This document shows positions 3,101 through 58,114 of a stretch of DNA of 64,000 nt, piece after piece. Source of the stretch: an uncultured Gammaproteobacteria bacterium. GTDB taxonomy: Bacteria; Patescibacteriota; Microgenomatia; CAZETR01; Amesbacteraceae. The stretch is taken from positions 29,573 through 93,572 of the forward strand of contig CAYHGA010000001.1 in assembly GCA_964356225.1 (NCBI GenBank), given 5' to 3'. The notes beneath the pieces were generated by a model, which did no database searches, was not told where the DNA came from, and was given only the letters and a program-made list of their open reading frames with translations. Position numbers and translations under genes: made by a program. How positions within the stretch are numbered: the stretch's first letter is position 1; each line of letters begins with the position of its first letter.

Positions 3101-3340
3101 AGTCAGACCTTTGCGCTCGGCCTGGAGTGGAGAGAGAGTAGGTTTCTCGACGGAATATTGACCAAACTCCAGCAGCCAGTTTTTACCCGTAAAATCTTCG
3201 ATGGGGGAAATTTCGGCAATAGCTTCTCCAATGCCGACACTAATAAACCACTGCCATGAATCGAGTTGGATCCGGGTCAAATTGAGGGGAGGTAGGCGGG
3301 CGGATTCCTGTCCCCAGATAAGACGGTGAGATACTGGCAT
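131..3340 (-). CDS. rpoB: DNA-directed RNA polymerase subunit beta
   Basis: 1069-aa ORF. N-terminus and the RpoB signature blocks (GNKGV, PSRMNIGQ-like, C-terminal clamp) are recognisable throughout. Confidence 0.95.
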
Positions 3341-3412
3341 TTGCTTCCCTGTAGCGCAAAAAGCCCCTCCGGTATCTCTACCGCTTGGGGTTTCTAAGCT
3401 GAGTCGACTTTA

Positions 3413-4420
3413 TCAGCGGGTCAGATATTTGTCAATATTCAAATTGTGTTCCTCTATTGTGGCAGCGAAATGAGTGGTGCCGTCGGGGGCGTGCAGGTAA
3501 AACCAATAAGGTGTGTTTTGGGGATGGCGGGCGGCTTCAATTGAAGCTAAGCCGGGGTTGGCGATGGGAGTAGGCGGCAGGCCGGTATGGATGTAAGTAT
3601 TATAAAGAGAGGGATAGCGGGTATCGGTGACGGGGGACCAGTCGCCATAAGCATATTGAACAGTGGCGTCTATTTGAAGAGGCCAACCAGCTTTGAGGCG
3701 TTTGAGAAGAATTCCGGCTACGATGGGACGATCGACGGCTGTTTTGGTCTCCCGTTCGACTAAGGAAGCCAAGATGAGAGTGCTGGTATCAATGGGGCCA
3801 ATTTTACGATTAAAGGTGGTGGTCATGGTGTTTACGATATCCGCAGGAGCGGCATAGGTAGGAATGAGGTAGGTATCAGGAAAAAGACGGCCTTCGAGGG
3901 TGGCGGTGAGAGATAAAAAATTGGCGGTCTCAAAATTTTCTAAGCTGGAAGCCAGGCGGGCGGCAATTTGTTCCCGGCGCCAGCCTTCAGGAAAAGTCAC
4001 CCAGATATCCCGGGGGCCGGATGTTAAAGAGGTGAGAAGATTTTTGAGATCGGTGGTGGGGGAAAGAAGGTAGGTGCCGGGTTTGATTTTTTTGTCCAAA
4101 CCGGAAAACACAAAATATATTTTGGCTACCTGGGGAGAGCGGATAAATTTTTGTTCAAATAGGGCTTGAGAGATGGCCGAAGCTGATTGATTGGAAGCAA
4201 TGATAAACGGGCGGGTTTGGTCAGAAGCGGGATTTAGAGGAGAAAGCTGGCGGGTCCACCAGACAAAGCCCAAAAGCGATGTTAAAGCGAGAAGGACGAA
4301 CAAACTGGCCAGGAGTTTCACCACCCTAGACCTCCTCGAACAAGGCCCGACGGTATTTGCCAGTTTCTGTTTCTTTGATAAAAATGCGGCCGCATTTTTT
4401 ACACACGATTTTGGTGCCAC
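3413..4420 (-). CDS. mltG: Endolytic murein transglycosylase MltG/YceG family
   Basis: YceG-like blocks are present: FPEGWR, LVERE, YNTY..GLPPTPI.NPG. The N-terminal TM is LLASLFVLLALTSLLGFVWW. The true start is probably an internal GTG near 4324, just after the upstream zinc-ribbon gene stop. Confidence 0.8.
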   Translation of the reverse strand: MAPKSCVKNAAAFLSKKQKLANTVGPCSRRSRVVKLLASLFVLLALTSLLGFVWWTRQLSPLNPASDQTRPFIIASNQSASAISQALFEQKFIRSPQVAKIYFVFSGLDKKIKPGTYLLSPTTDLKNLLTSLTSGPRDIWVTFPEGWRREQIAARLASSLENFETANFLSLTATLEGRLFPDTYLIPTYAAPADIVNTMTTTFNRKIGPIDTSTLILASLVERETKTAVDRPIVAGILLKRLKAGWPLQIDATVQYAYGDWSPVTDTRYPSLYNTYIHTGLPPTPIANPGLASIEAARHPQNTPYWFYLHAPDGTTHFAATIEEHNLNIDKYLTR

Positions 4421-4562: not shown

Positions 4563-4896
4563 GCCAACCTTGCAAAATGACGGCGGCGGAGACTGCGTGT
4601 TCAGAAAGACGGCGTTTTTTTTGCGAGGTGTGTAATAAAGATTGGCGGGCGTCGTGAGATGAAAGAGTTTCGTCGGCTTGATGTACGACTGCTAAATCAG
4701 ATAATTTATCCAAAAAAATTTCCGGACAGTCCCCGACTACAATGCTGTCGATATTATGTTCATTAATCAATAGTTTAATTGACTGAAGTGCTTTTTCGGT
4801 TTTGATAGTTGTTAAAGGTTCGGCTAACGGCCCGGTGGCCAACGCCACTCCGGTCCTAACCGCTCCATAATCAATCCCCAAGTAATTCATACACAA
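4546..4896 (-). CDS. ruvX: Holliday-junction resolvase-like RNase YqgF/RuvX
   Basis: N-terminal GIDYGAVRTGVALA motif (YqgF family); about 115 aa. Confidence 0.85.
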   Translation of the reverse strand: MCMNYLGIDYGAVRTGVALATGPLAEPLTTIKTEKALQSIKLLINEHNIDSIVVGDCPEIFLDKLSDLAVVHQADETLSSHDARQSLLHTSQKKRRLSEHAVSAAVILQGWLDSKL

Positions 4897-5084: not shown

Positions 5085-5735
5085 TTAATTTACCAGTTCG
5101 GCGCGGGCGACGAAGCGGCGGAGGTAGGTGCCCAGGGGGACGCAAGTGATAAGGGTGAGCTCGTTTTTATCATAGCGCTGGGCCAGGACTTCGATTTGGG
5201 AAGGGTCGACTTCGGTAGTGTTGCGCACTACATATTTATAGGTCACGCCGTCGTATTGGATGGTAATGGCATCGCCGACTTTAATTTTGGGGAGAGGATT
5301 AAAAATGGAAATGGGGTCATTAGGTTTGTAGAGAGCGGGTAAAGTAGAATGGCCAAAAATAACGGTGTTGCCATAATCTCCAGGAAGGGCCGTGCCAGAA
5401 AAGTGAATGGCATTTTTTTTCAAATCTGTGCCATTGATTTCTACAGGAACATCGCGAAGACCGAGCTTGGGTATAGATAGTGTGTAGTAGCGGACGCGGC
5501 TGACAGTGGGAGTAGAACTGGAAGCAGGAAACCAGGTGGTGGATTGAGTGTAATCTGGAGTGGTGATTCCTAAAACGCTGGCGACAAAAGGTACCGGAAC
5601 CAGGGCAACAGCAGTGGGATCTAAGAGGCGGGGACGAAGACTGAAACTCAACTGAGAAAGGCCAATGGGAACGATGACGCTGACAAGGAGAACTAAACCC
5701 ACTACTACAAGAGAGAGGGAGAGAAAACGGCGCAT
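5085..5735 (-). CDS. Sortase-family transpeptidase
   Basis: N-terminal signal anchor. Catalytic His (IFGHST), TLITC active-site Cys motif and a downstream Arg. 216 aa. Confidence 0.8.
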   Translation of the reverse strand: MRRFLSLSLVVVGLVLLVSVIVPIGLSQLSFSLRPRLLDPTAVALVPVPFVASVLGITTPDYTQSTTWFPASSSTPTVSRVRYYTLSIPKLGLRDVPVEINGTDLKKNAIHFSGTALPGDYGNTVIFGHSTLPALYKPNDPISIFNPLPKIKVGDAITIQYDGVTYKYVVRNTTEVDPSQIEVLAQRYDKNELTLITCVPLGTYLRRFVARAELVN

Positions 5736-7819
5736 TATTTTAGAGAACGGACGGAGACAGTAATGTGCTTAGACAAGCGGGGCAGTGTGGCTATAAAGGC
5801 GGGAAGCCGGGGAGAAATCAGAATATCAATCTGACCGACAGCGGGTAAGGATTGGAGATATTCTTTAGCCCGAACCGGATATTTGCCAGCTATGTCTTTG
5901 GCGATTTGGGCTGTGTCTACTTGAGGCAGAAGCTGGGCAGTCACCCGGACCTGAAAAGTGACGGTGTTTTTGTCGGCTTTTTTAACAGTCATGCTTTGGG
6001 AGACGTCGGTATCAAAAACATAACCTGTGGGAATTTGCGGATTGACCTGGGCATCAACAATAGACTGGAGGTCTGATTTAGAGACCACCAGTCCGCGGGC
6101 TGTGGCCGAGAGTTTAAGAGAGACGTTGTCTGCCTCTTCCTCTACTTTGTGACTAAAGTTTTCGGACGTTGACTGAAGACTAATTGATTCGGTGATAAGC
6201 TGCTGATCGGCGCTTACTTTTTGGGTGAGCTGATCCCGGCCAAGGTTTTTTAAAGTGTCGGTCAAATCAGAACGGAGCTTGGCGACGTCGTCTTTGGCAA
6301 CTACTTTGGCTTGGCGGCTGGTGCCGCCAGAAATCGCGGCTTCGTTCTTAGCCGCAGTTTCGTTTTCAGCATAAGTGCCGACTTTAAAAACTGTTCCTGC
6401 GGACAGATTAGAGTCCCCTCCAATCTGGACTGCGGTGATCTTGGCGACGGCCTTGGCAGGTTGGAGATTAAAAACATCGCCGCTTCCCGAGGCCACAGTA
6501 ATCGTTTCGTCTAGAACAAACTTCAACCCGGAAGGAGAGGTAAGAATGGTTCCGGCGGGAAGGGAGCGGGCTGTTTTGACATTGTTGGCAACAGAGACGG
6601 CTCCGGTAGCCTTGTCACCCACCAATTTGGATCCGGTGGTGGGGACGGATTTTTCGGCAGATACGGCAGTCTCTAAATTATCTGCAGGTAAATCCTTTCC
6701 ACCTGCTATTAATTCAAACTGGTGCTCCAGATTTTTGGGGGTGACAAACAGGATAACTTCAGCTTTGGGTAAGTACCAGTAAGCTGCGCCCAATCCGCCG
6801 ACGATGGCAAGAAACGCAAACACAGAAACGAGCGCCAGTGCAGAAAAATTGAGGTGAATTTTTGGCAAGTGAATTGCGGGAAATTTAAACTTGGGTTTGG
6901 GTGGGAGAACTACCGGAACAGGTTCCGGTTCTGGGGGAGGCGGAGGTGAAGATTGGACGGCTATATCTAGATCCTGAACAAAGCCTAGATCTGCGGCTGA
7001 ATGGGTAGATTCGGAAGGGACCTCTGTTTCGGCTTCATTAGGATTAATAAGACCGGTGGCCCGGGCGACTTCTGACCCGCCGGAAAGGGCGATGGCCCGG
7101 ATGCTGAAATCAGCGGGTAAAATCTCTACCTTGGGGAAATGAAGGAAAGGTAGATGTTTTTGGGGAGACTGCCAGGGATGAGCTAAAAGCAGTTGCTTGA
7201 TTTCTTCCAGATCTATGCCGGAATCGTACAAAAGCATGCGGGAAGGAAGCATGTCTATATCGGAAAAACGGGAAAGGCCTTCGACTACATCGTCGGCCAA
7301 ATGAGAACTTTTTTGCACCAGATGAGTACCGTCAATTTTGCCTAATCTGACCAGAGTAATTTCCAATGCATGCGGCCAAAACCCAATGAGGATAATGGTG
7401 GGGGGAACGCCTTCGGTGGATTGGAGATATTTGGTAGCAGCTTCGGGAGTAACTACAAATCCTACCGGGACTAAATCCAATTTTTCGGAGAGGGCCTTAA
7501 GGAGATGAAGCTGGGAAGAAGAAATCTTGTCTACCCCAACCCAATCGGCAGGCAGACCAAAGATAACTTTGTGAATTTCTACTTTACCGGAGGGGTCGAG
7601 ATGGGAAGACGCGTCGGAGAGGGCGGCGTCGGCGGCAGTGATAAGAGAGTTTTCGGCTTTATCATCCCATGGCTGGTTGCTACTGACAGCCAAGACCTGG
7701 GGTTTGTCGTTGATGACTGACCAGACAGCGCTTTTGACTAAACCATGATCGATTTCTAAAGCGAAAAAATATTCCCGGGAAGATGAGTTTTCGTTTTTTT
7801 TAAGAAAGGGCAGTTGCAT
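5735..7819 (-). CDS. Membrane protein with an N-terminal actin-like (FtsA/PilM-like) domain, a Pro-rich linker, one TM helix and a large extracytoplasmic C-terminal domain
   Basis: FFALEIDHG and ILIGFWPHALEITLVRLG resemble the phosphate-1 and phosphate-2 motifs of the FtsA/PilM fold. PPPPPEPEPVPVVLPPKPK is followed by the hydrophobic stretch ALALVSVFAFLAIVGGLGAAYWY. Its stop overlaps the sortase start by 1 nt. Confidence 0.4.
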   Translation of the reverse strand: MQLPFLKKNENSSSREYFFALEIDHGLVKSAVWSVINDKPQVLAVSSNQPWDDKAENSLITAADAALSDASSHLDPSGKVEIHKVIFGLPADWVGVDKISSSQLHLLKALSEKLDLVPVGFVVTPEAATKYLQSTEGVPPTIILIGFWPHALEITLVRLGKIDGTHLVQKSSHLADDVVEGLSRFSDIDMLPSRMLLYDSGIDLEEIKQLLLAHPWQSPQKHLPFLHFPKVEILPADFSIRAIALSGGSEVARATGLINPNEAETEVPSESTHSAADLGFVQDLDIAVQSSPPPPPEPEPVPVVLPPKPKFKFPAIHLPKIHLNFSALALVSVFAFLAIVGGLGAAYWYLPKAEVILFVTPKNLEHQFELIAGGKDLPADNLETAVSAEKSVPTTGSKLVGDKATGAVSVANNVKTARSLPAGTILTSPSGLKFVLDETITVASGSGDVFNLQPAKAVAKITAVQIGGDSNLSAGTVFKVGTYAENETAAKNEAAISGGTSRQAKVVAKDDVAKLRSDLTDTLKNLGRDQLTQKVSADQQLITESISLQSTSENFSHKVEEEADNVSLKLSATARGLVVSKSDLQSIVDAQVNPQIPTGYVFDTDVSQSMTVKKADKNTVTFQVRVTAQLLPQVDTAQIAKDIAGKYPVRAKEYLQSLPAVGQIDILISPRLPAFIATLPRLSKHITVSVRSLK

Positions 7820-21042: not shown

Positions 21043-22023
21043 TCAATAAGTGGGCAGGAATTGTTTGAGATTATCGGCTGTAATGTAAAATTCCTTGCCT
21101 TTGCCTTCAACTATGAGTTTGGCGGTTTTTCTAACGATACCCTGAATCGTGCGCTCCAGAGTTCTAATGCCGGCGTCAAAACCTAAGGGGCGGACGATTT
21201 GGGGCCAGACGGCATCGTCAATTTTGAGAGCTGTTTCAGGAAGAGACGCGTTTTTAATTTCGATAGGCAAGACATAATTGCGGGCGATTTTGATTTTTTC
21301 CTCGTCGTTGTAAGACGGCATGGTCAGAGGCTCGAGGCGATCCATAACGGCCGTGGAAATATTAGTGGTGTTGTTGCAGGTAGCAATGAATAAAACCTGG
21401 GAAAGATCGAACGGATAATCGATGTAATGATCGGTAAAACCAGCGTTTTGTTCAGGGTCGAGAAGCTCGACTAAAACTCCCATAATTTCGGATCTGGTGG
21501 ATTCGGCTACCCGGTCGATTTCATCAAGTAGAATGACCGGATTTTTGGCTCCGGCCCGGCGGATATTTTTGATGATCTGACCCGGCTCGGCGTCGGGATA
21601 AGTGCGGGATTGACCACGCAATTCTAGAGCTGAGCCCATGCCGCCAAAAGGAATACGCACAAATTTGCGGCCCATGGCCTCGGCAATTGATTTGGCGAGA
21701 GTTGTTTTGCCGGTACCGACCAAGCCGACTAATAATAAAATCGGGGCATGGTAGATGAGGCTTTTTTGCTGATTTAAAATGAGAACGGAGAGATATTCTA
21801 AAATGCGCTGTTTCAAATCTTCTAATCCGTAATGATGCTGGTCAAGAATTTGCTTAGCGTGACCTAAATCCAGGATATCTTTAGTGGTTTTGTCCCAAGG
21901 AAGAGAGGTGATCCAGTCTATGTAGTGAGTGGTTTGTTCGGGATTGGTACCACGAGTCAAGATTTCTTCGGCTCTGGCACGGAGATCATCGGGTAACGTG
22001 GCAGATTTTAATTTGTCATCCAT
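21043..22023 (-). CDS. Lon-like AAA+ ATPase with no peptidase domain
   Basis: Close match to the Lon AAA+ module (HYGLEDLKQRILEYLSV, Walker A GLVGTGKTTLAKSIA, LLDEID, sensor region). The protein ends at 326 aa with no Ser-Lys protease domain. Confidence 0.75.
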   Translation of the reverse strand: MDDKLKSATLPDDLRARAEEILTRGTNPEQTTHYIDWITSLPWDKTTKDILDLGHAKQILDQHHYGLEDLKQRILEYLSVLILNQQKSLIYHAPILLLVGLVGTGKTTLAKSIAEAMGRKFVRIPFGGMGSALELRGQSRTYPDAEPGQIIKNIRRAGAKNPVILLDEIDRVAESTRSEIMGVLVELLDPEQNAGFTDHYIDYPFDLSQVLFIATCNNTTNISTAVMDRLEPLTMPSYNDEEKIKIARNYVLPIEIKNASLPETALKIDDAVWPQIVRPLGFDAGIRTLERTIQGIVRKTAKLIVEGKGKEFYITADNLKQFLPTY

Positions 22024-49519: not shown

Positions 49520-50263
49520 TTACCAGCTGGCGGTCATGCCAGAAATTAATTCAGAAAAATAACGCAGGGTGGGAAGGACGACAGGAAAATTGAGACGGCA
49601 AGGACCAATAAGGCCCAGAATGCCCCGGCGGCCGGAGCCGGCAGCAAAAGGAGTAAAGGCGAAACCTACCGGCTCGAAAAAGTCTCCCCAGCCTAAGTCT
49701 TGGCCAAAGACGATATGGACCGCTTCGGCGGGATCGTACTGGCGTTCAAAAAAGAGCTGACGGATGCGGGCCTCCTGATCCAGGAGAGTCAGGACGGTGC
49801 GGGTGACATCGATATCAAAAAATTCCGGGGTGGAGAGAATGTTGGCGGTTCCGGCGTAATAGACGTCGCCGGCATCGGTAATCGCCACGGATAGGTTTTT
49901 AGTGCGGTCTGCCAAAGCCAGGGTGGTGTGACGCATGAGGTGATCGAAATCGAAACGGGAGTCCCAGATTTTTTCCTTGGCGGCCACTTCTTCGGTGACA
50001 GACATTTTTTTTTCCTGCATGAGATGGTCAACGTAGAAACGGAGAGCGGTTGGGGTGGGTACCCGGCCGGCGGAGGTGTGAAGCTGTTTTAATAAGCCTT
50101 TCTTAGTAAGGGCGGCCATTTCGTTACGAATGGTGGCCGGGGAAATGCCTAAGGAATATTTGCGGTCTAAAACTTCACTGCCTACAGCCTCGGCGGTATT
50201 GATGTATTCCTCGACCAGGTGTTTAAGGATTTGGGTTTGGCGAGGGGTGAGATCGATATCCAT
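49520..50263 (-). CDS. hrcA: Heat-inducible transcription repressor HrcA
   Basis: N-terminal wHTH (LTPRQTQILKHLVEEYINTAEAVGS) plus the HrcA C-terminal domain. It directly precedes grpE–dnaK. Confidence 0.85.
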   Translation of the reverse strand: MDIDLTPRQTQILKHLVEEYINTAEAVGSEVLDRKYSLGISPATIRNEMAALTKKGLLKQLHTSAGRVPTPTALRFYVDHLMQEKKMSVTEEVAAKEKIWDSRFDFDHLMRHTTLALADRTKNLSVAITDAGDVYYAGTANILSTPEFFDIDVTRTVLTLLDQEARIRQLFFERQYDPAEAVHIVFGQDLGWGDFFEPVGFAFTPFAAGSGRRGILGLIGPCRLNFPVVLPTLRYFSELISGMTASW

Positions 50264-51742: not shown

Positions 51743-53530
51743 TTAAACTTTCAAAATTGACAGGAAGGCTTCTTGGGGGATGTCGATGCGGCCGACACGC
51801 TTCATGCGGGCTTTGCCTGCTTTCTGTTTTTTGAGAAGCTTGTCTTTGCGGGTTTGGTCTCCCCCACTAAGTTTGGCGATAACGTCTTTGCGGTAAGCTT
51901 TGACGTCGGCCCGGGCTAAAATTTGGCTGCCGATAGCGGCTTGAATGGAAACTTCAAAATTCTGGCGGGGGATGATGTTTTGCAAAGTGACAACCAGGTT
52001 TTTAGCTAAATACGGAGTCAAGGCTTGGGGAACAATTTGAGACAAGGCGTCTATTTTGTCACCAGCGACGAGAATGTCCAGTTTTACTAAATCTGCGGCT
52101 TGGTAGCCGGCTAATTCGTAATCCAAGGTGGCGAATCCCTGGGAGACGCTTTTGAGGGAATCGTTAAAGCCGCGGATAAGTTCGGCCAGGGGCAAAATGT
52201 AAGATAACTGGACTAAACGGGATAAATATTGAATGTGGGTTTGAGTACCACGATGGTTTTGACAGAGCTGGATAACCGGACCGACGTATTCCTGGGGAAC
52301 AAAAATTGAAAGGTTTAGTATGGGCTCGCGAATTTCTTTTATCACGGACGGGTCGGGTAAGCCTGAAGGCTGGTTAATAGTTATTAGTTCATTGTTCATA
52401 GTAAGAACTTGATAGGAAACGGATGGGGCGGCGGCGATAAGGTCCAGACCGAATTCGCGCTCCAGCCTTTCTTGAACAATATCAGCGTGAAGCAAACCCA
52501 AGAAACCAACACGGAAACCGTTACCCAGAGCCGGAGAAAATTCCGGGGTAAAAATGAGAGCCGAATCGGAAAGCTGAAGTTTGCCTAAAGCGCTGCGCAG
52601 AGTATTTATTTCAGACCCTTGGGTAGAATAAAAACTGACGAAGACTACCGGTTTGATGGGTTTGTAGCCGGGGAGCGGGTTCATAGTTCTTAGTTCATAG
52701 TTCATAGTAGTAAGCGTGTCGCCGACGGTGAGAAGAGATAAATCTTTGAGGTTGGTGACGACATAACCTACAACGCCTGCGGAAAGAAGAGGGACCGGGG
52801 TGCGTTGGGGAGTGAAAAATCCAACTTCGATAGCGGTAGCCGGAGCGTGGGTGCCCAGTAAAAAAAGTTTGTCGTGGGTGGAAATTTGACCGTCGACGAT
52901 GCGCACCCAGGCGATAACACCCAAGTGGGGGTCGAAATTGGAATTAAAAACAAGAGCTCTGGTTAGTTGGTTAGTTGGTTTACGGTTTATAGTAGATGGG
53001 GAAGGAACGCGCTTAATAACTGCTTCCAGTAATTCCGGGACGCTGGCGCCGGTTTTGGCGGAGACCAAAAGTATCGAGTCTAAGTCTAAGTTTAAGATTT
53101 CAGAAAGCTGGCGTCTAGTGCCTTCGATGTCCGCAGTGATTATGTCTATTTTGTTAATGACAGGAATAATGGCTAGGCCTAACTTTTGGGCTTGATGATA
53201 GTGGGCCAAGGTTTGGGCCTGAACGCCCTGGGTGGCATCAACAAGTAAAATTGCTCCTTCACAGGCGGCCAGAGAACGATTAACCTCATAGGAAAAATCC
53301 ACGTGGCCGGGAGTGTCGATGAGATTAAGAATGTAATTTTGATAATGCATGCGGACGGGGGCAAGTTTGATGGTTATCCCCCGCTCGCGCTCGATGGGAT
53401 TGCTGTCCAGAAGCTGGGACTGCATGAGACGTTTAGAAACTGTGCCGGTAATTTCCAGAAAACGGTCGGCCAGCGTGGACTTGCCGTGATCCACGTGGGC
53501 AATAATGGCGAAGTTGCGAATGTTCTGCAT
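51743..53530 (-). CDS. lepA: Elongation factor 4 (LepA)
   Basis: AIIAHVDHGKSTL G domain plus LepA-specific C-terminal domains. Two short low-complexity inserts are encoded by nucleotide tandem repeats. Confidence 0.93.
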   Translation of the reverse strand: MQNIRNFAIIAHVDHGKSTLADRFLEITGTVSKRLMQSQLLDSNPIERERGITIKLAPVRMHYQNYILNLIDTPGHVDFSYEVNRSLAACEGAILLVDATQGVQAQTLAHYHQAQKLGLAIIPVINKIDIITADIEGTRRQLSEILNLDLDSILLVSAKTGASVPELLEAVIKRVPSPSTINRKPTNQLTRALVFNSNFDPHLGVIAWVRIVDGQISTHDKLFLLGTHAPATAIEVGFFTPQRTPVPLLSAGVVGYVVTNLKDLSLLTVGDTLTTMNYELRTMNPLPGYKPIKPVVFVSFYSTQGSEINTLRSALGKLQLSDSALIFTPEFSPALGNGFRVGFLGLLHADIVQERLEREFGLDLIAAAPSVSYQVLTMNNELITINQPSGLPDPSVIKEIREPILNLSIFVPQEYVGPVIQLCQNHRGTQTHIQYLSRLVQLSYILPLAELIRGFNDSLKSVSQGFATLDYELAGYQAADLVKLDILVAGDKIDALSQIVPQALTPYLAKNLVVTLQNIIPRQNFEVSIQAAIGSQILARADVKAYRKDVIAKLSGGDQTRKDKLLKKQKAGKARMKRVGRIDIPQEAFLSILKV

Positions 53531-53542
53531 GTGGGTATTCTC

Positions 53543-53932
53543 TCACAAACTAGTGGCTTCTTGTATTCCATCAGACAAACATTTATACGATTGTAATTGG
53601 TATTTTAGGGGTGATGGATACAATTCCAGGTGAGTAGCAGCAACTGCTATTGGTTCGTGAAGTTGATCTTTGCTTGAAAGCATCGTTAATTCCTTTGGTT
53701 TTAAAGACTTAAGCATGTTCTGTATATTTTGGTCTGCAGCATGGGACAACTCCAAACTTGCTCGGACTTCCTCGTACACCATTTCTATTTCAGGTGGAGG
53801 AATTACGGTATGCAGCAAAAGGGCGGTAGCTATTTTTGGATATTTTTTTGATATTTCTAACGCACGGGCGCCATTTAAATTAATACGTTCAATAAGGGGG
53901 GCGTAACTTTTTAATGGTTCCTGATCTTGCAT
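53543..53932 (-). CDS. Hypothetical 129-aa soluble protein
   Basis: No recognisable motifs. The start codon overlaps the stop of the upstream 33-aa peptide gene. Confidence 0.35.
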   Translation of the reverse strand: MQDQEPLKSYAPLIERINLNGARALEISKKYPKIATALLLHTVIPPPEIEMVYEEVRASLELSHAADQNIQNMLKSLKPKELTMLSSKDQLHEPIAVAATHLELYPSPLKYQLQSYKCLSDGIQEATSL

Positions 53933-54033
53933 TATTTTCTAGTGCCCAAATACACTACTAAGGCGAGGATACCGACCAAGACAATGAGCGTCCAGGGGTT
54001 GTTAACAACTTTTACAAAGAGCTCTGGATTCAT
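53932..54033 (-). CDS. Small hydrophobic peptide (33 aa, single TM helix)
   Basis: Hand translation: MNPELFVKVVNNPWTLIVLVGILALVVYLGTRK*. The stop overlaps the downstream ATG by 1 nt. Confidence 0.35.
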   Translation of the reverse strand: MNPELFVKVVNNPWTLIVLVGILALVVYLGTRK

Positions 54034-54035
54034 GG

Positions 54036-54152
54036 TTACTTACGCTGGGATTTAGATTTGTTGGCCAAATAAAGGATCCATGCAGCAAAAAGGATAGAGG
54101 CAATTAGGCCACTAACAAAAGCAAAATTTATGCGAGTAGTTATGTCATTCAT
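54036..54152 (-). CDS. Small hydrophobic peptide (38 aa, single TM helix)
   Basis: Hand translation: MNDITTRINFAFVSGLIASILFAAWILYLANKSKSQRK*. The ATG overlaps the stop of the 70-aa ORF, and its own stop lies 2 nt from the next ATG. Confidence 0.35.
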   Translation of the reverse strand: MNDITTRINFAFVSGLIASILFAAWILYLANKSKSQRK

Positions 54153-54357
54153 TGTGTATACTCTGACTTAATTTTAACCCAATCTGGACAAATATCCAGC
54201 ACGAAATGGTGCCAACAACAAAGAGAGCTAGTCTGAGAGATGAAACAATATCCGAAACACTGATTGATCCGATGACTCCACTGATGAACCACGCTTTAGC
54301 AAGATCAAAACAAAGGTTAGAAAGAGACTTAAATTGAAATTGATTTAATTTATCCAT
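54145..54357 (-). CDS. Small membrane protein (70 aa)
   Basis: ORF-track ORF with a C-terminal TM helix (LALFVVGTISCWIFVQIGL). An extended -10 (TGGTATATT) sits about 8 nt upstream. Confidence 0.4.
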   Translation of the reverse strand: MDKLNQFQFKSLSNLCFDLAKAWFISGVIGSISVSDIVSSLRLALFVVGTISCWIFVQIGLKLSQSIHNE

Positions 54358-54377
54358 TAGAGTTTAATATACCATAA

Positions 54378-56018
54378 CTAATTTTGATCCGGGGCGGAGA
54401 GGATGACGGGCTCGGCGGGGACGGGAGATAAGATGTTTTTCCACTGGGCAATTCGTTTAATTAAATCGATGAAAGTTGCTAATTCGGGAATTTTGAAAAA
54501 CGCAGACAGGGAAAAATAAACCGATAAGCCAATGAGGGTAGTGATCCCCGTCAAGAGAAGTAAAGGAAGAGTACGGGTGGTATCAAAAACAAATTGATCC
54601 AGTAAACGCATGGGTATCCATAGGAAAAGGCCGGTGACGAGGCTGGTAAAAATCATTTTGGCCAGAGGGATAAAAACTTTATGCGGGGCCACTGAAACAC
54701 GGTGGTATAACAGCCAGGAAAGAACCAGAGTTTCCAAAATGGCGGTGGTAGAGATGGCTACCGCTATTCCCAGAATTCCCCACCCTAACCAGGTGACGGC
54801 TAATATGGATAATGTCGAACTAAAAATGGCGGCGATTATGCCGACTATAAGCGGGGTGCGGGTATCGTGCAGGGCATAAAAACCGCGAATGACTAACTGC
54901 ATGACGGCGTAAAAAGCGGCCGAAGCACAGAGAATGGCCAGTGTTTTCCCGGTCAAAAGAGTGGCGGTCCAAGGAAAAGTTTTGGCACCAAAAATGATAC
55001 GGACGATGGGGATCCTCAAGATAATGAACAAGGTGCTAAGAGGAAGGGCCATAAAAGCGATTTGCAAAAAGGAGGAAACCAGAGTGCGCCTGAATTGGTC
55101 CAGATCGGAATGGGCCGCTTCTTTGGAAAGCTGGGGAAAGGCGGCCTGACCAATGGTAACTCCAAAGAGAGAAGTGGGAATAGTAAAAAGGAGGCGGGAA
55201 GCATTAAGAAGGGACAAAGAGCCGGAAGCCAGAAGCGAGGCTAGAGTGACGGCCACAAATTGCTCTATTTGATCAATGCCCAGAGCCAGGACTCGGGGGG
55301 GCATAAGACGGCCTATTTCACGAACCCCGGGGTGGAAAAAATCCAAAGATAAAGAGGGGCGAAAACCTAGGCGGAAAGCCAAAGGCAATTGGATAAACAT
55401 ATGCAAAATTGCTCCCAGGACAACTCCCAAGGCCGGACCGAGGATGCCCAGGGTGGGAGAAAGGAAGACGATGCCGGCGATAATCCCCAGGTTGTAGGCT
55501 ACGGGGGCCAAGGCAGGGATAAGAAAACGCTGGTGAGATTGGATGATACCGGTCAAAAAACCGGAAATGGAAAAGAATATTTGAGCCACAAGCATGATCC
55601 GCAAAAGTTGAACCATGACACTAATTTGGGAAACGGTGAAGCCGGGAGCAATCAGCCGAGAGAGGGGGTATGCAAATATAAAGATGACGGTCGAGAGAAG
55701 GGTAAAAACAAGAATAATCAGATTCATGGTGGTGGAGGTCATAGCCCAGGCTTCTTTTTCGTTCTTGGCCAGATACTTGTTAAAGGTGGGAATAAAGGCG
55801 GCAGAGAGGGAACCGATGACTAGAAGCTGAAAAATAGTATCCGGGATAACAAAGGCGGCATAGTAGACGTCAAGCAGCGGGGATTGAGTGCTAAAAAAAG
55901 AGGAAATCAGCAGGCGGGTCTTGACCAAACCAATGAGATGAGACAGGCTATAAGTGGCCATGATAATGAAGGCGGCAGAAAGAATGTGGTTTTGGCGCCG
56001 GAAGAAAATATCCCGCAT
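54378..56018 (-). CDS. murJ: Lipid II flippase MurJ/MviN
   Basis: A 546-aa polytopic protein with a MOP-superfamily MurJ pattern. The true start may be the internal Met of MATYSL. Confidence 0.85.
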   Translation of the reverse strand: MRDIFFRRQNHILSAAFIIMATYSLSHLIGLVKTRLLISSFFSTQSPLLDVYYAAFVIPDTIFQLLVIGSLSAAFIPTFNKYLAKNEKEAWAMTSTTMNLIILVFTLLSTVIFIFAYPLSRLIAPGFTVSQISVMVQLLRIMLVAQIFFSISGFLTGIIQSHQRFLIPALAPVAYNLGIIAGIVFLSPTLGILGPALGVVLGAILHMFIQLPLAFRLGFRPSLSLDFFHPGVREIGRLMPPRVLALGIDQIEQFVAVTLASLLASGSLSLLNASRLLFTIPTSLFGVTIGQAAFPQLSKEAAHSDLDQFRRTLVSSFLQIAFMALPLSTLFIILRIPIVRIIFGAKTFPWTATLLTGKTLAILCASAAFYAVMQLVIRGFYALHDTRTPLIVGIIAAIFSSTLSILAVTWLGWGILGIAVAISTTAILETLVLSWLLYHRVSVAPHKVFIPLAKMIFTSLVTGLFLWIPMRLLDQFVFDTTRTLPLLLLTGITTLIGLSVYFSLSAFFKIPELATFIDLIKRIAQWKNILSPVPAEPVILSAPDQN

Positions 56019-56030
56019 GTGTGATATTAT

Positions 56031-56279
56031 ATGGCGGATATGCCTATAACTAAAGGTGCAATCAGGAAGCTACGGGCGGATAAAGGTAAGGCCCGGGTTA
56101 ATAACGTAATAAAACGGGCGTTTAGGGAATCCGTGTCTAAGATGCGCAAGCATCCGACCGTAAAAAATTTGGTGGAGGTCTACCGGAAACTGGACCGGGC
56201 GGCTAAATCTAAAGTGATTCACAAGAATAAAGCGAATCGGTTGAAATCTAGACTGTCCAAGTTGCTGAAAAAGAAGTAG
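56031..56279 (+). CDS. rpsT: 30S ribosomal protein S20
   Basis: 82-aa S20. Confidence 0.9.
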   Translation: MADMPITKGAIRKLRADKGKARVNNVIKRAFRESVSKMRKHPTVKNLVEVYRKLDRAAKSKVIHKNKANRLKSRLSKLLKKK

Positions 56280-56296
56280 TGTTGTACACTGGAAGA

Positions 56297-58114
56297 ATGC
56301 TACGAAAAGGATTTGTTGGTATCGAGTTGGCAGTAATGGTGGTGATGGTAATGGGGCTGATCGCTGGAACAAAGCAAATTTCAGATCTCACCCAAAAGTT
56401 CCTAATCAAGAACAAAGCGGCTGGACAAGTTACTTGTTCTTCAAATTGCGCATCTGGTTCCAGTGGTGAATATAATTTCTGCTACAACGAATGCGTTCCG
56501 GGGAAAACCGGTTACTCCCGGCCCATTGGTTGTAATTCCAGTGGTTGGGTGAGAGGAAATGATCAAGTTGATTCGGCTTGCGGCTCCGCACCCGCGCCTA
56601 CTCCGGTATCCCCAGGTCCCACTCCGACTGGCGCTCCAACTCCAGGTGATGGACCTTACGGTAAAAATTGGGGGAATACGTGTAACGGTATAAATTATGG
56701 GGGCTGCAGTCCTGGTTACCGTTGCGTAGGCAATCTTTGTAGTGGATATAACTGTTTTAAGCTTGATTCGTCATGTGGGGGAGTACCACCGTCAACTATC
56801 TGTCAACCTGGCCATTGTGATTACGGAGGATCAAACCTAGGCTGGAGAAAGTGCAATGGCAACGGCACGGCTTACGACGGAAATAAATACACAGATAATA
56901 CTTGCTCCACTGTCGCCGGTGGAGGACCTACCCCAACTCCAAAATCCGGTGCGACACCTACGCCAAGACCTACTCCGACTCCACCTTCGACATGTGCTCA
57001 ATATTACAGTCTCGCTGATTGTAATAGTGCTTCATGCTCTTGGTATAACTGTGGGGGCAAGTCTCCGGGCTGTTTCCCGGGTGGGACGTTGATGGCGGTT
57101 GCCTGTCCCACCACCCCAACCCCAACGCCGACCCCAAGACCTACTCCAACCCCGACTCCTGTTGTGGATTGTACCAAGATTCCCTACTCTGACTGTAATA
57201 CTTCACTTAACAATGGAAACTCTCGGTGTGCTTGGTACAACTGTTATGATGGAACAGCTGGCTGTTTTTCTAAAGGTACGCCAGATACTGTTGCTTGTCC
57301 AAACCTCGCTCCAACGCCAACCCCAACGCCAACCCCAAGACCTACTCCCACCCCGACCCCAAAACCCACGCCCACTCCGACTCCAACCCCTAAATCCGAA
57401 CCTAGATATAATTATGATCTCTCTACTTATCGCTGTGTTGAGGCTCAAGATGGATATTATCCTTCTTTCTCCGCTTGTGAACAGAACTATGCTGTACTAA
57501 ATGTGCCATACTGTAAGTCGGATGGGTTTCTGTGTTATGCAGCAAATACCGATGGATCTTGTAAGACTACAATACAATGTTATCCAGGAACTGTTTGCAC
57601 AGGCTCACCAAGATTCGCTAAATGTGCTCTCGCTTCTTCTCCCCCCACTCCCACTCCAACTCCGACGCCTGCTGCTGAGAATAACGGCTGGACTGGTCAA
57701 TACTGTGCTGGAGGGCTCCTTGGATCTCCGAAGAGTATCTGCAAACCCGGTCTGCCTCCTACATGCGAGCCCTGCAATAGTTGCTCCGGAAATTACGGAT
57801 ACGCCGTAGGCGCTGGTTGTTCTCCAATTTCAACCCCAACTCCAACCCCAACTCCAACTCCTACGCCCGTCGCTGGCCAAGGCTGGACTAATCAATACTG
57901 CACAGGAGGGTCTTCGAGAAGTATCTGCACTTTTAGTTTCCCTCCTACATGTTCCCCTTGCAACAGTTGTTCCGGAAATATTGGGTATGCCGTGTGCAAC
58001 GGTTCTTCGCTAATTCCTACGACCGATTCTACTCCCGCGGTTGCTCCTAAGACCCCTCGTCCTTTCTACTGCATAAACTTCTTTGGCTGGAACCCATGTG
58101 GAGTTGTCCAGTAG
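56297..58114 (+). CDS. Type IV pilin-like protein with a large C-terminal region of Cys-rich modules separated by (TP)n linkers
   Basis: Class III signal peptide MLRKG|FVGIELAVMVVMVMGLIAG (cleavage-site Gly, Phe at +1, Glu at +5). The following ~580 aa carry more than 60 Cys in repeated modules (DC..C.WYNC...GCF..GT...VACP twice; GW..QYC.GG......C.....PPTC.PCNSCSGN.GYAV twice) joined by TPTPTP runs. The ORF track's 56279 start is a GTG overlapping the rpsT stop. Confidence 0.6.
   Translation: MLRKGFVGIELAVMVVMVMGLIAGTKQISDLTQKFLIKNKAAGQVTCSSNCASGSSGEYNFCYNECVPGKTGYSRPIGCNSSGWVRGNDQVDSACGSAPAPTPVSPGPTPTGAPTPGDGPYGKNWGNTCNGINYGGCSPGYRCVGNLCSGYNCFKLDSSCGGVPPSTICQPGHCDYGGSNLGWRKCNGNGTAYDGNKYTDNTCSTVAGGGPTPTPKSGATPTPRPTPTPPSTCAQYYSLADCNSASCSWYNCGGKSPGCFPGGTLMAVACPTTPTPTPTPRPTPTPTPVVDCTKIPYSDCNTSLNNGNSRCAWYNCYDGTAGCFSKGTPDTVACPNLAPTPTPTPTPRPTPTPTPKPTPTPTPTPKSEPRYNYDLSTYRCVEAQDGYYPSFSACEQNYAVLNVPYCKSDGFLCYAANTDGSCKTTIQCYPGTVCTGSPRFAKCALASSPPTPTPTPTPAAENNGWTGQYCAGGLLGSPKSICKPGLPPTCEPCNSCSGNYGYAVGAGCSPISTPTPTPTPTPTPVAGQGWTNQYCTGGSSRSICTFSFPPTCSPCNSCSGNIGYAVCNGSSLIPTTDSTPAVAPKTPRPFYCINFFGWNPCGVVQ

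Follow-up and report, generated by a model that had tools for sequence, protein, structure and literature searches.

A probable accessory operon of a predicted small-membrane-protein module and an orphan gene at the murJ-lepA junction of a Candidatus Amesbacteria chromosome

Multi-peptide leaderless and class IIb bacteriocin loci, such as those of aureocin A70 and enterocin L50, carry tandem genes for cationic, hydrophobic peptides of 30-40 amino acids (aa) beside a small membrane protein. The toxins of type I toxin-antitoxin (TA) systems (Hok, Fst, TisB, Ibs and others; Fozo et al., 2010, PMC2887945) are shorter than 60 aa, with one transmembrane (TM) span and a charged C-terminus, and are found as short accessory inserts between core genes with a patchy distribution. 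In type II TA operons the antidote gene comes first and is overlapped by the toxin gene through ATGA. Small two-helix membrane proteins also occur as inner-membrane subunits of Gram-positive type IV secretion systems (T4SS), namely the VirB3-like TcpD, TcpE, ConC and PrgI, and in pIP501 TraI serves as the anchor of a coupling protein (the TraI-TraJ precedent; reviewed in PMC12857230). Here, we describe an accessory operon at positions 53543-54357 of a 64-kb stretch of DNA (the window) from Candidatus Amesbacteria (Microgenomates; candidate phyla radiation, CPR/Patescibacteria), in which two independent modules, a trio of predicted small membrane proteins and an orphan gene, are joined at a variable junction between the core genes murJ and lepA. 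Genomes of the CPR/Patescibacteria are small and rich in unannotated genes, and micro-proteins encoded in them are routinely missed. The assignment to Candidatus Amesbacteria is based on the relatives of MurJ, and the population is carried by groundwater samples such as the Hainich H51 assemblies. The setting of the window is core chromosome, with rpoB, alaS, ftsK, dnaK, hrcA and the genes for RNase J, PNPase, EF-G and IF-2.

The operon consists of four open reading frames (ORFs) that fill the region on the minus strand and are referred to by working names giving the length of the product in aa. Related contigs or loci compared with the window are designated by L-numbers and members of protein families by P-numbers. 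The features of the region, in the direction of transcription, are as follows.

54378..56018, minus strand: murJ (lipid II flippase), the upstream flank (Pfam MurJ, E = 5e-77; synteny)
54374-54366, minus strand: extended -10 box TGGTATATT, with the hexamer TATATT at 54371-54366 (read directly in the sequence)
54145..54357, minus strand: orf70, predicted membrane helical hairpin (ORF, conservation, AlphaFold2)
54036..54152, minus strand: orf38, predicted single-pass membrane peptide (ORF, conservation, hydropathy)
53932..54033, minus strand: orf33, predicted single-pass membrane peptide with the motif NNPWTL...VVY (ORF, conservation, hydropathy)
53543..53932, minus strand: orf129, orphan predicted all-helical soluble protein (ORF, family alignment)
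53531..53542, minus strand: 12-nucleotide (nt) spacer between the orf129 stop and the lepA ATG, GAGAATACCCACATG
51743..53530, minus strand: lepA (elongation factor 4), the downstream flank (ATG at 53530; Pfam GTP_EFTU, EFG_C and LepA_C)

The murJ stop codon (54378-54380) lies 20 nt from the orf70 ATG (54357), with 8 nt between the TGGTATATT box and this ATG. orf70 and orf38 overlap by 8 nt (ATGAATGA), the orf38 stop and the orf33 start are separated by a gap of 2 nt, and orf33 and orf129 overlap by 1 nt (TAATG). An initial annotation, made from the letters of the window, had reported these four ORFs with the same sizes, strand and junctions, a distance of 12 nt to lepA and an extended -10 box about 8 nt before the first ORF; all of this agrees with the coordinates given here. 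Its description of the region as a small-membrane-protein cassette upstream of lepA also holds, in that the genes are compact, co-oriented and real, and encode predicted small membrane proteins together with a 129-aa protein.

We regard all four ORFs as real, selected genes because related contigs preserve every frame intact and show more synonymous changes than expected. The sister lineage L027/L028/L029 (LepA 87% identical) has all four genes between murJ and lepA with order and spacing unchanged. Amino-acid identity to this lineage is 86% for orf70, 89% for orf38 and 88% for orf33; for orf129 it is 68% when a 35-residue gap is counted and 84-86% over shared residues. The ratio of nonsynonymous to synonymous substitution rates (dN/dS) against L027 is 0.07 for orf70, 0.22 for orf38, 0.05 for orf33 and 0.14 for orf129 (for which values span 0.14-0.27), similar to the flanks (0.09 for the 3' part of murJ and 0.07 for lepA). 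The excess of synonymous changes has binomial P values of 1.5e-9 (orf70), 0.035 (orf38), 2.4e-6 (orf33) and 1.4e-9 (orf129), and substitutions in the cassette ORFs concentrate at third codon positions. In the more divergent L030 the frames are kept at 39-49% identity and in L049 orf70 is kept at 46%; order, sizes, overlaps and topology are unchanged. Frames of 33-70 aa arise frequently by chance alone, orf38 is not called by public gene finders and the database homologues are unnamed, so that the small ORFs might be chance frames or antisense artefacts, with only orf129, or nothing, being a gene. Given the conservation described above, this is extremely improbable. An antisense artefact of a plus-strand gene, for which the initial annotation had allowed, is contradicted by the dN/dS and codon-position signal and by the plus strand itself, on which the longest ORF across the region is at most 78 aa; an Rfam search of the region gave no match. 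The exact product of orf38 is missing from about 15 billion predicted proteins, among which the products of orf70, orf33 and orf129 are found, and this conserved 38-aa gene is evidently skipped by gene callers in a systematic manner.

The trio of orf70, orf38 and orf33 is, as judged from family alignments and gene order, a previously undescribed small-membrane-protein module, with orf70 as the founding member of a new family. The AlphaFold2 model of orf70, computed from an 11-sequence alignment, is a two-helix hairpin (H6-33 and H39-68; predicted local distance difference test score, pLDDT, 87.9). Helix 2 is strongly hydrophobic and helix 1 moderately so, and both termini are probably cytoplasmic. 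orf38 and orf33 each contain one hydrophobic span (maximum 15-residue hydropathy 2.4-3.0), with an unbroken core of about 22 residues, and a basic C-terminus rich in Lys and Arg; they probably have the N-terminus outside and the C-terminus inside. The single TM helix that the initial annotation assigned to each of the first three products is thus retained by hydropathy for orf38 and orf33 and is replaced for orf70 by the modelled hairpin. A search seeded with orf70, followed by a four-sequence profile, found 11 protein clusters of the orf70 family among 5.8 billion proteins. The members are 67-78 aa long and all share the N-terminal motif LNxxQLxGLxxLCFDLAK, in which Q8, L12, C16, F17, D18 and L19 are invariant in the alignment. 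The public predictions of this hairpin-plus-peptide family are all unnamed, and no second copy of the hairpin gene was found in the window by a hidden Markov model search of the six-frame translation.

The gene arrangement was read in nine lineages (the window, L027, L030, L049, L041, L045, L050, L053 and L054), which are all members with enough contig. A second ORF of 38-42 aa overlaps the stop of the hairpin gene by 4 or 8 nt in every one of the nine, and its product always has one hydrophobic span and a basic tail; the counterparts of orf38 in L030 and L049 match it in position, size and topology. Four of the nine (the window, L027, L030 and L049) also encode a third peptide, 33-38 aa long and marked by NNPWTL..VVY, the orf33 homologues in L030 and L049 being 38 and 36 aa long, respectively. 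Neither orf33 nor orf38 could be singled out as the counterpart of the single peptide of the two-gene subfamily, with shuffle z-scores of about 2-3 against about 1.5. The neighbours of the hairpin gene are murJ/lepA, yfhO, a TrwB/VirD4-type coupling protein and a sortase, RNase_H_2/truB, def-fmt or a PIN/helix-turn-helix (HTH) pair, and on the short contigs L053 and L049 they are unnamed or lacking; no single neighbour is conserved over the nine contexts.

Searches of Pfam, NCBIfam, PHROGs and PADLOC with the four proteins and the family alignments gave nothing significant, and the cassette proteins and family alignments had no significant match among PDB sequences. For 12 members of the hairpin family, Pfam at E <= 1 returned only chance-level matches to DUF6722 and SdpI. 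In Foldseek searches with the orf70 model, the PDB yielded generic hairpins only (E of at least 2.3, not significant) and a viral structure library yielded only non-significant helical hairpins. The PHROGs matches were weak and non-significant (E of at least 0.007), and included phrog_25941 (membrane protein; E = 0.044) and phrog_8959 (unannotated; E = 0.0074). Three scans of viral contigs contained no match to the cassette, and neither did tblastn searches of phage records and plasmid records; an origin from a phage or a plasmid was dropped as a candidate on these empty results. None of these homology and fold searches narrows down what the module does.

The initial annotation had likened the cassette to a bacteriocin or holin-like system, that is, a bacteriocin-plus-immunity or lysis cassette in which the peptides are exported or form holes and orf70 is an immunity protein or antiholin. 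The locus has in common with multi-peptide bacteriocin loci its tandem genes for short, hydrophobic, cationic peptides beside a small two-helix membrane protein, and it is patchily distributed in a variable region; the weak PHROGs matches point the same way. This resemblance does not survive closer comparison and the explanation is improbable. orf38 and orf33 lack a double-glycine or other leader; their long hydrophobic spans with basic C-terminal anchors are typical of resident membrane proteins and are unlike amphipathic secreted peptides. None of the nine contexts, the window included, contains an ABC exporter, a processing enzyme, an immunity-type neighbour, an endolysin or a phage gene. 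The larger protein is encoded first, an order that is atypical of bacteriocin operons and the reverse of that in the multi-peptide loci, with which there is also no homology. Unlike a phage holin or lysis cassette, the genes are flanked by murJ and lepA with no adjacent endolysin and no phage or prophage context, and the viral-contig, phage, plasmid and viral-structure searches described above gave no significant match.

The orf129 product differs from the trio in nature and in distribution, and it is best described as an orphan, predicted helical soluble protein that forms a module separable from the trio. Its family has four known members (P0001, P0002, P0003 and P0006), and when a full-length homologue was searched exhaustively with HMMER against 1.84 billion representative proteins, three family members only were retrieved. 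The protein has no significant family match in Pfam or NCBIfam and no match among PDB sequences. Compared with the other three members (169-200 aa), the window orf129 has an in-frame internal deletion of 35 residues in the least conserved middle part, but the two conserved motifs, SKKYPKxAxALLLHxxIPPPEI and EPIAxAAxHxExYPSPLKYQLxSYxCL, are both retained. AlphaFold2 gave a poor model for the family (pLDDT 49). Homologues of orf129 occur without the trio in L026, where the gene stands alone, and in L043, in an unrelated context, and the trio occurs without orf129 in L030 and L049; because each occurs without the other, the cassette comprises two independent modules.

At the murJ-lepA junction, which in the window occupies 53531-54377, the closest relatives in the genome collection (L001 and L002; MurJ 89-90% identical) have no cassette, and their murJ stop and lepA start overlap by 1 nt (TAATG). 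In eleven related loci the murJ-lepA gap is at most about 70 nt, and the GAGAATACCCACATG spacer of the window is similar to the short native pre-lepA spacer of relatives that have no insertion (compare TAAAATAGCCTCATG in L003 and TAAAATACGCACATG in L022). By comparison with these loci the cassette is an insertion, with the murJ stop marking its left boundary. About ten lineages carry different cargo inserted at this junction, including the following.

L022 759-1505, L012 7677-8381 and L018 8018-9328, opposite strand: gene for a winged HTH (DUF7347) plus NUDIX protein
L007 7644-10268: NUDIX, CYTH, His_Phos_1 (histidine phosphatase) and DUF559 genes
L015 7700-8017: MazG
L018 8018-9328: also a CopG-type antitoxin gene and an adjacent overlapping small ORF

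In Amesbacteria, accessory genes are thus evidently taken up repeatedly between murJ and lepA. In L027, a PhdYeFM-antitoxin/PIN-toxin pair (3331-3995) directly follows lepA and has no counterpart at that position in the window.

The cassette was probably acquired horizontally, as suggested by its composition and by comparison with L026. Its GC content is 0.36-0.42, compared with 0.47-0.50 in the flanks, and the GC content at third codon positions is 0.32 for orf70, 0.36 for orf38 and 0.32 for orf129, compared with 0.49 +/- 0.05 for 13 long genes of the window. In L026 (MurJ 91% identical), the orf129 homologue stands at the junction fused to the same leader, TAGTTATGGTATATT..ACTCT. Differences from L026 at synonymous sites amount to 31% in orf129, 55% in murJ and 71% in the first 600 nt of lepA, which implies a transfer of the gene between lineages after the flanks had diverged. 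On either side of the L026 insert stands a copy of the murJ 3' end, the two forming a 26-bp direct repeat (4616-4641 and 5226-5251), with a terminator-like hairpin, AATCCCACC-TTTC-AGGTGGGATT, just ahead of the second copy. This repeat looks like the scar of a recombination-mediated capture from a donor that already had a post-murJ cassette. A repeat search of the window found no convincing repeats flanking the cassette, and a target duplication is visible in L026 only.

A Shine-Dalgarno sequence is rare in the window, where even a lax motif detects one in only 6 of 43 long genes, and many genes of this genome have a TATAAT-like box 6-8 nt upstream of the start; murJ itself has TATAAT 7 nt ahead of its ATG. 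This pattern suggests that leaderless mRNAs are widespread in the genome, and on the same grounds a leaderless start is predicted at orf70. Examples of this pattern are the murJ upstream region (54019-56040) and the genes starting at 49520-50263 (minus strand), 58160 (plus strand) and 21043-22023 (minus strand). The TGGTATATT box is identical in L027 and L026 and probably serves as a promoter, with a transcript that would be leaderless or nearly so. Boxes resembling a -10 element lie 7-9 nt ahead of the start codon in several members of the hairpin family, the start-proximal arrangements being TGgTATATT-8-ATG in the window, TGaTATTAT-7-GTG in L049, TAGAAT-7-ATG in L030 and TTGACA-16-TACAAT-7-ATG in L041. 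A simple promoter scan did not call the TGGTATATT site and found no -35 element; the region contains five promoter-like sites, with 3.4 +/- 2.2 expected, and two terminator-like sites, with 1.9 expected. Since the sequence scan detected no terminator-like site between orf129 and lepA, lepA probably relies on read-through transcription from the cassette. The translational coupling proposed in the initial annotation is compatible with the overlaps in the window, and similarly tight spacing (overlaps of 4-8 nt and gaps of 2-4 nt) recurs in divergent homologues.

Taken together, these observations make it probable that the region is a real, co-expressed, mobile micro-protein membrane module accompanied by an orphan gene. 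In the proposed mechanism, transcription would start at the extended -10 box abutting the orf70 ATG and give a leaderless mRNA, in addition to read-through from murJ. Ribosomes would then move from ORF to ORF by termination-reinitiation at each of the three junctions (8-nt overlap, 2-nt gap and 1-nt overlap), so that the membrane proteins would be made in a fixed proportion and could come together in the cytoplasmic membrane as one hetero-oligomeric complex, while transcription would continue into lepA. That the module is an autonomous accessory unit is proposed because of its own putative promoter, its tight coupling, the lack of a conserved neighbour, its presence or absence among relatives, its foreign composition and its position at a junction that collects TA and nucleotide-hydrolase genes. 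Our preferred guess on function, which is tentative, is a self-contained membrane module of the toxin/antidote or immunity type, in which one or both short peptides would perturb the membrane unless restrained by the hairpin protein.

The comparison with described TA systems is mixed. The two cassette peptides share with type I toxins their length, single TM span, charged C-terminus, accessory insertion between core genes and patchy distribution. They differ in their predicted coupling to an upstream membrane protein and in having no sequence match to described toxin families in Pfam, NCBIfam, PHROGs or PADLOC. An antisense RNA antitoxin is not evident from the sequence, in which promoter-like and terminator-like sites are at chance level and which has no Rfam match. 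As in a type II operon, the larger protein is encoded first and the next gene overlaps it by 4-8 nt in the nine lineages, and the unit appears to be autonomous, with a predicted promoter of its own, in variable regions near other TA pairs (L054, L027 and L018). In contrast to type II systems, the putative antidote orf70 is a membrane hairpin with no DNA-binding fold (neither HTH nor ribbon-helix-helix), and the putative toxin is a membrane peptide rather than an enzyme, with no match in PADLOC or Pfam.

Several points weigh against the reading proposed here. Coupling and leaderless initiation are predictions from gene geometry, and the L027 orf70 starts with GTG, a poor start codon for a leaderless mRNA. 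A low GC content is partly expected in genes rich in codons for hydrophobic residues. With respect to a toxin/antidote function, PADLOC and the family searches revealed no TA or defence homology, the family is rare and is present as a single copy in the window, and conservation within the hairpin protein peaks in the N-terminal motif and not in the membrane helices. Conservation of the motif would fit a conserved cellular partner better than the simple neutralization of a peptide within the membrane.

Such a partner would fit the main alternative, in which a larger envelope machine would use the micro-proteins as accessory subunits, anchors or regulators, for example as a coupling-protein anchor or a VirB3/TcpE-like subunit, and the micro-proteins would not form an autonomous unit. 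The hairpin and peptide genes of L041 and L042 lie 258 nt upstream of a co-oriented gene for a 720-aa TrwB/VirD4-type coupling protein that has no hydrophobic segment of its own (maximum 19-residue hydropathy 1.23), an arrangement that in this one lineage resembles the pIP501 type of anchor. The hairpin proteins are also small two-helix membrane proteins like the VirB3-like subunits, and the cassette in the window follows murJ, an envelope gene. This divergent gene pair in L041 (5995-8740; also in L042) has a canonical promoter, TTGACA-16-TACAAT, 7 nt ahead of its ATG, with a sortase gene divergently oriented upstream. However, L041/L042 is the only one of the nine contexts with a T4SS gene; the hairpin gene is not next to virB4 in any of them, and in the window and the seven others it is not next to a coupling-protein gene either. 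No T4SS genes were found among the ten largest ORFs of the window that were scanned, neighbours are not conserved between contexts, and the closest relatives have no module at the locus and no member in the profile search. At 67-78 aa, the hairpin proteins are smaller than VirB3-like proteins (about 100-120 aa), and VirB2, VirB3 and TcpE were not matched in Pfam or by fold; in contrast to VirB2-like pilins, the orf70 family has no signal or leader peptide, its conserved motif beginning at residue 4, and the Foldseek search of the PDB gave no significant pilin match. We consider a role in an envelope machine to be possible but doubtful.

More speculatively, the hairpin protein and its overlapping peptide or peptides could represent a new protein-only, entirely membrane-embedded toxin/antidote or phage-exclusion module that is specific to the CPR and spreads from lineage to lineage as a leaderless mini-cassette entering short intergenic junctions or, alternatively, a portable anchor that recruits soluble partners such as a type IV coupling protein without its own anchor; both ideas are unlikely as they stand. 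If the trio does prove to be a membrane toxin/antidote or a secretion-machinery adaptor, it would extend the range of small-protein systems by a new type, found in bacteria that are difficult to work with in experiments, and if neither holds it would be an ordinary accessory gene cassette. On any of these readings the locus adds a new family of a familiar kind, a small-membrane-protein accessory operon in a variable hotspot, which lies outside the curated libraries that were searched. Its sharp signature, LCFDLAK, makes the conserved micro-protein membrane module of two or three genes accessible to searches.

Two long ORFs of the window that are without a Pfam match at the thresholds used encode products of 611 aa (56279-58114, plus strand) and 694 aa (5735-7819, minus strand).

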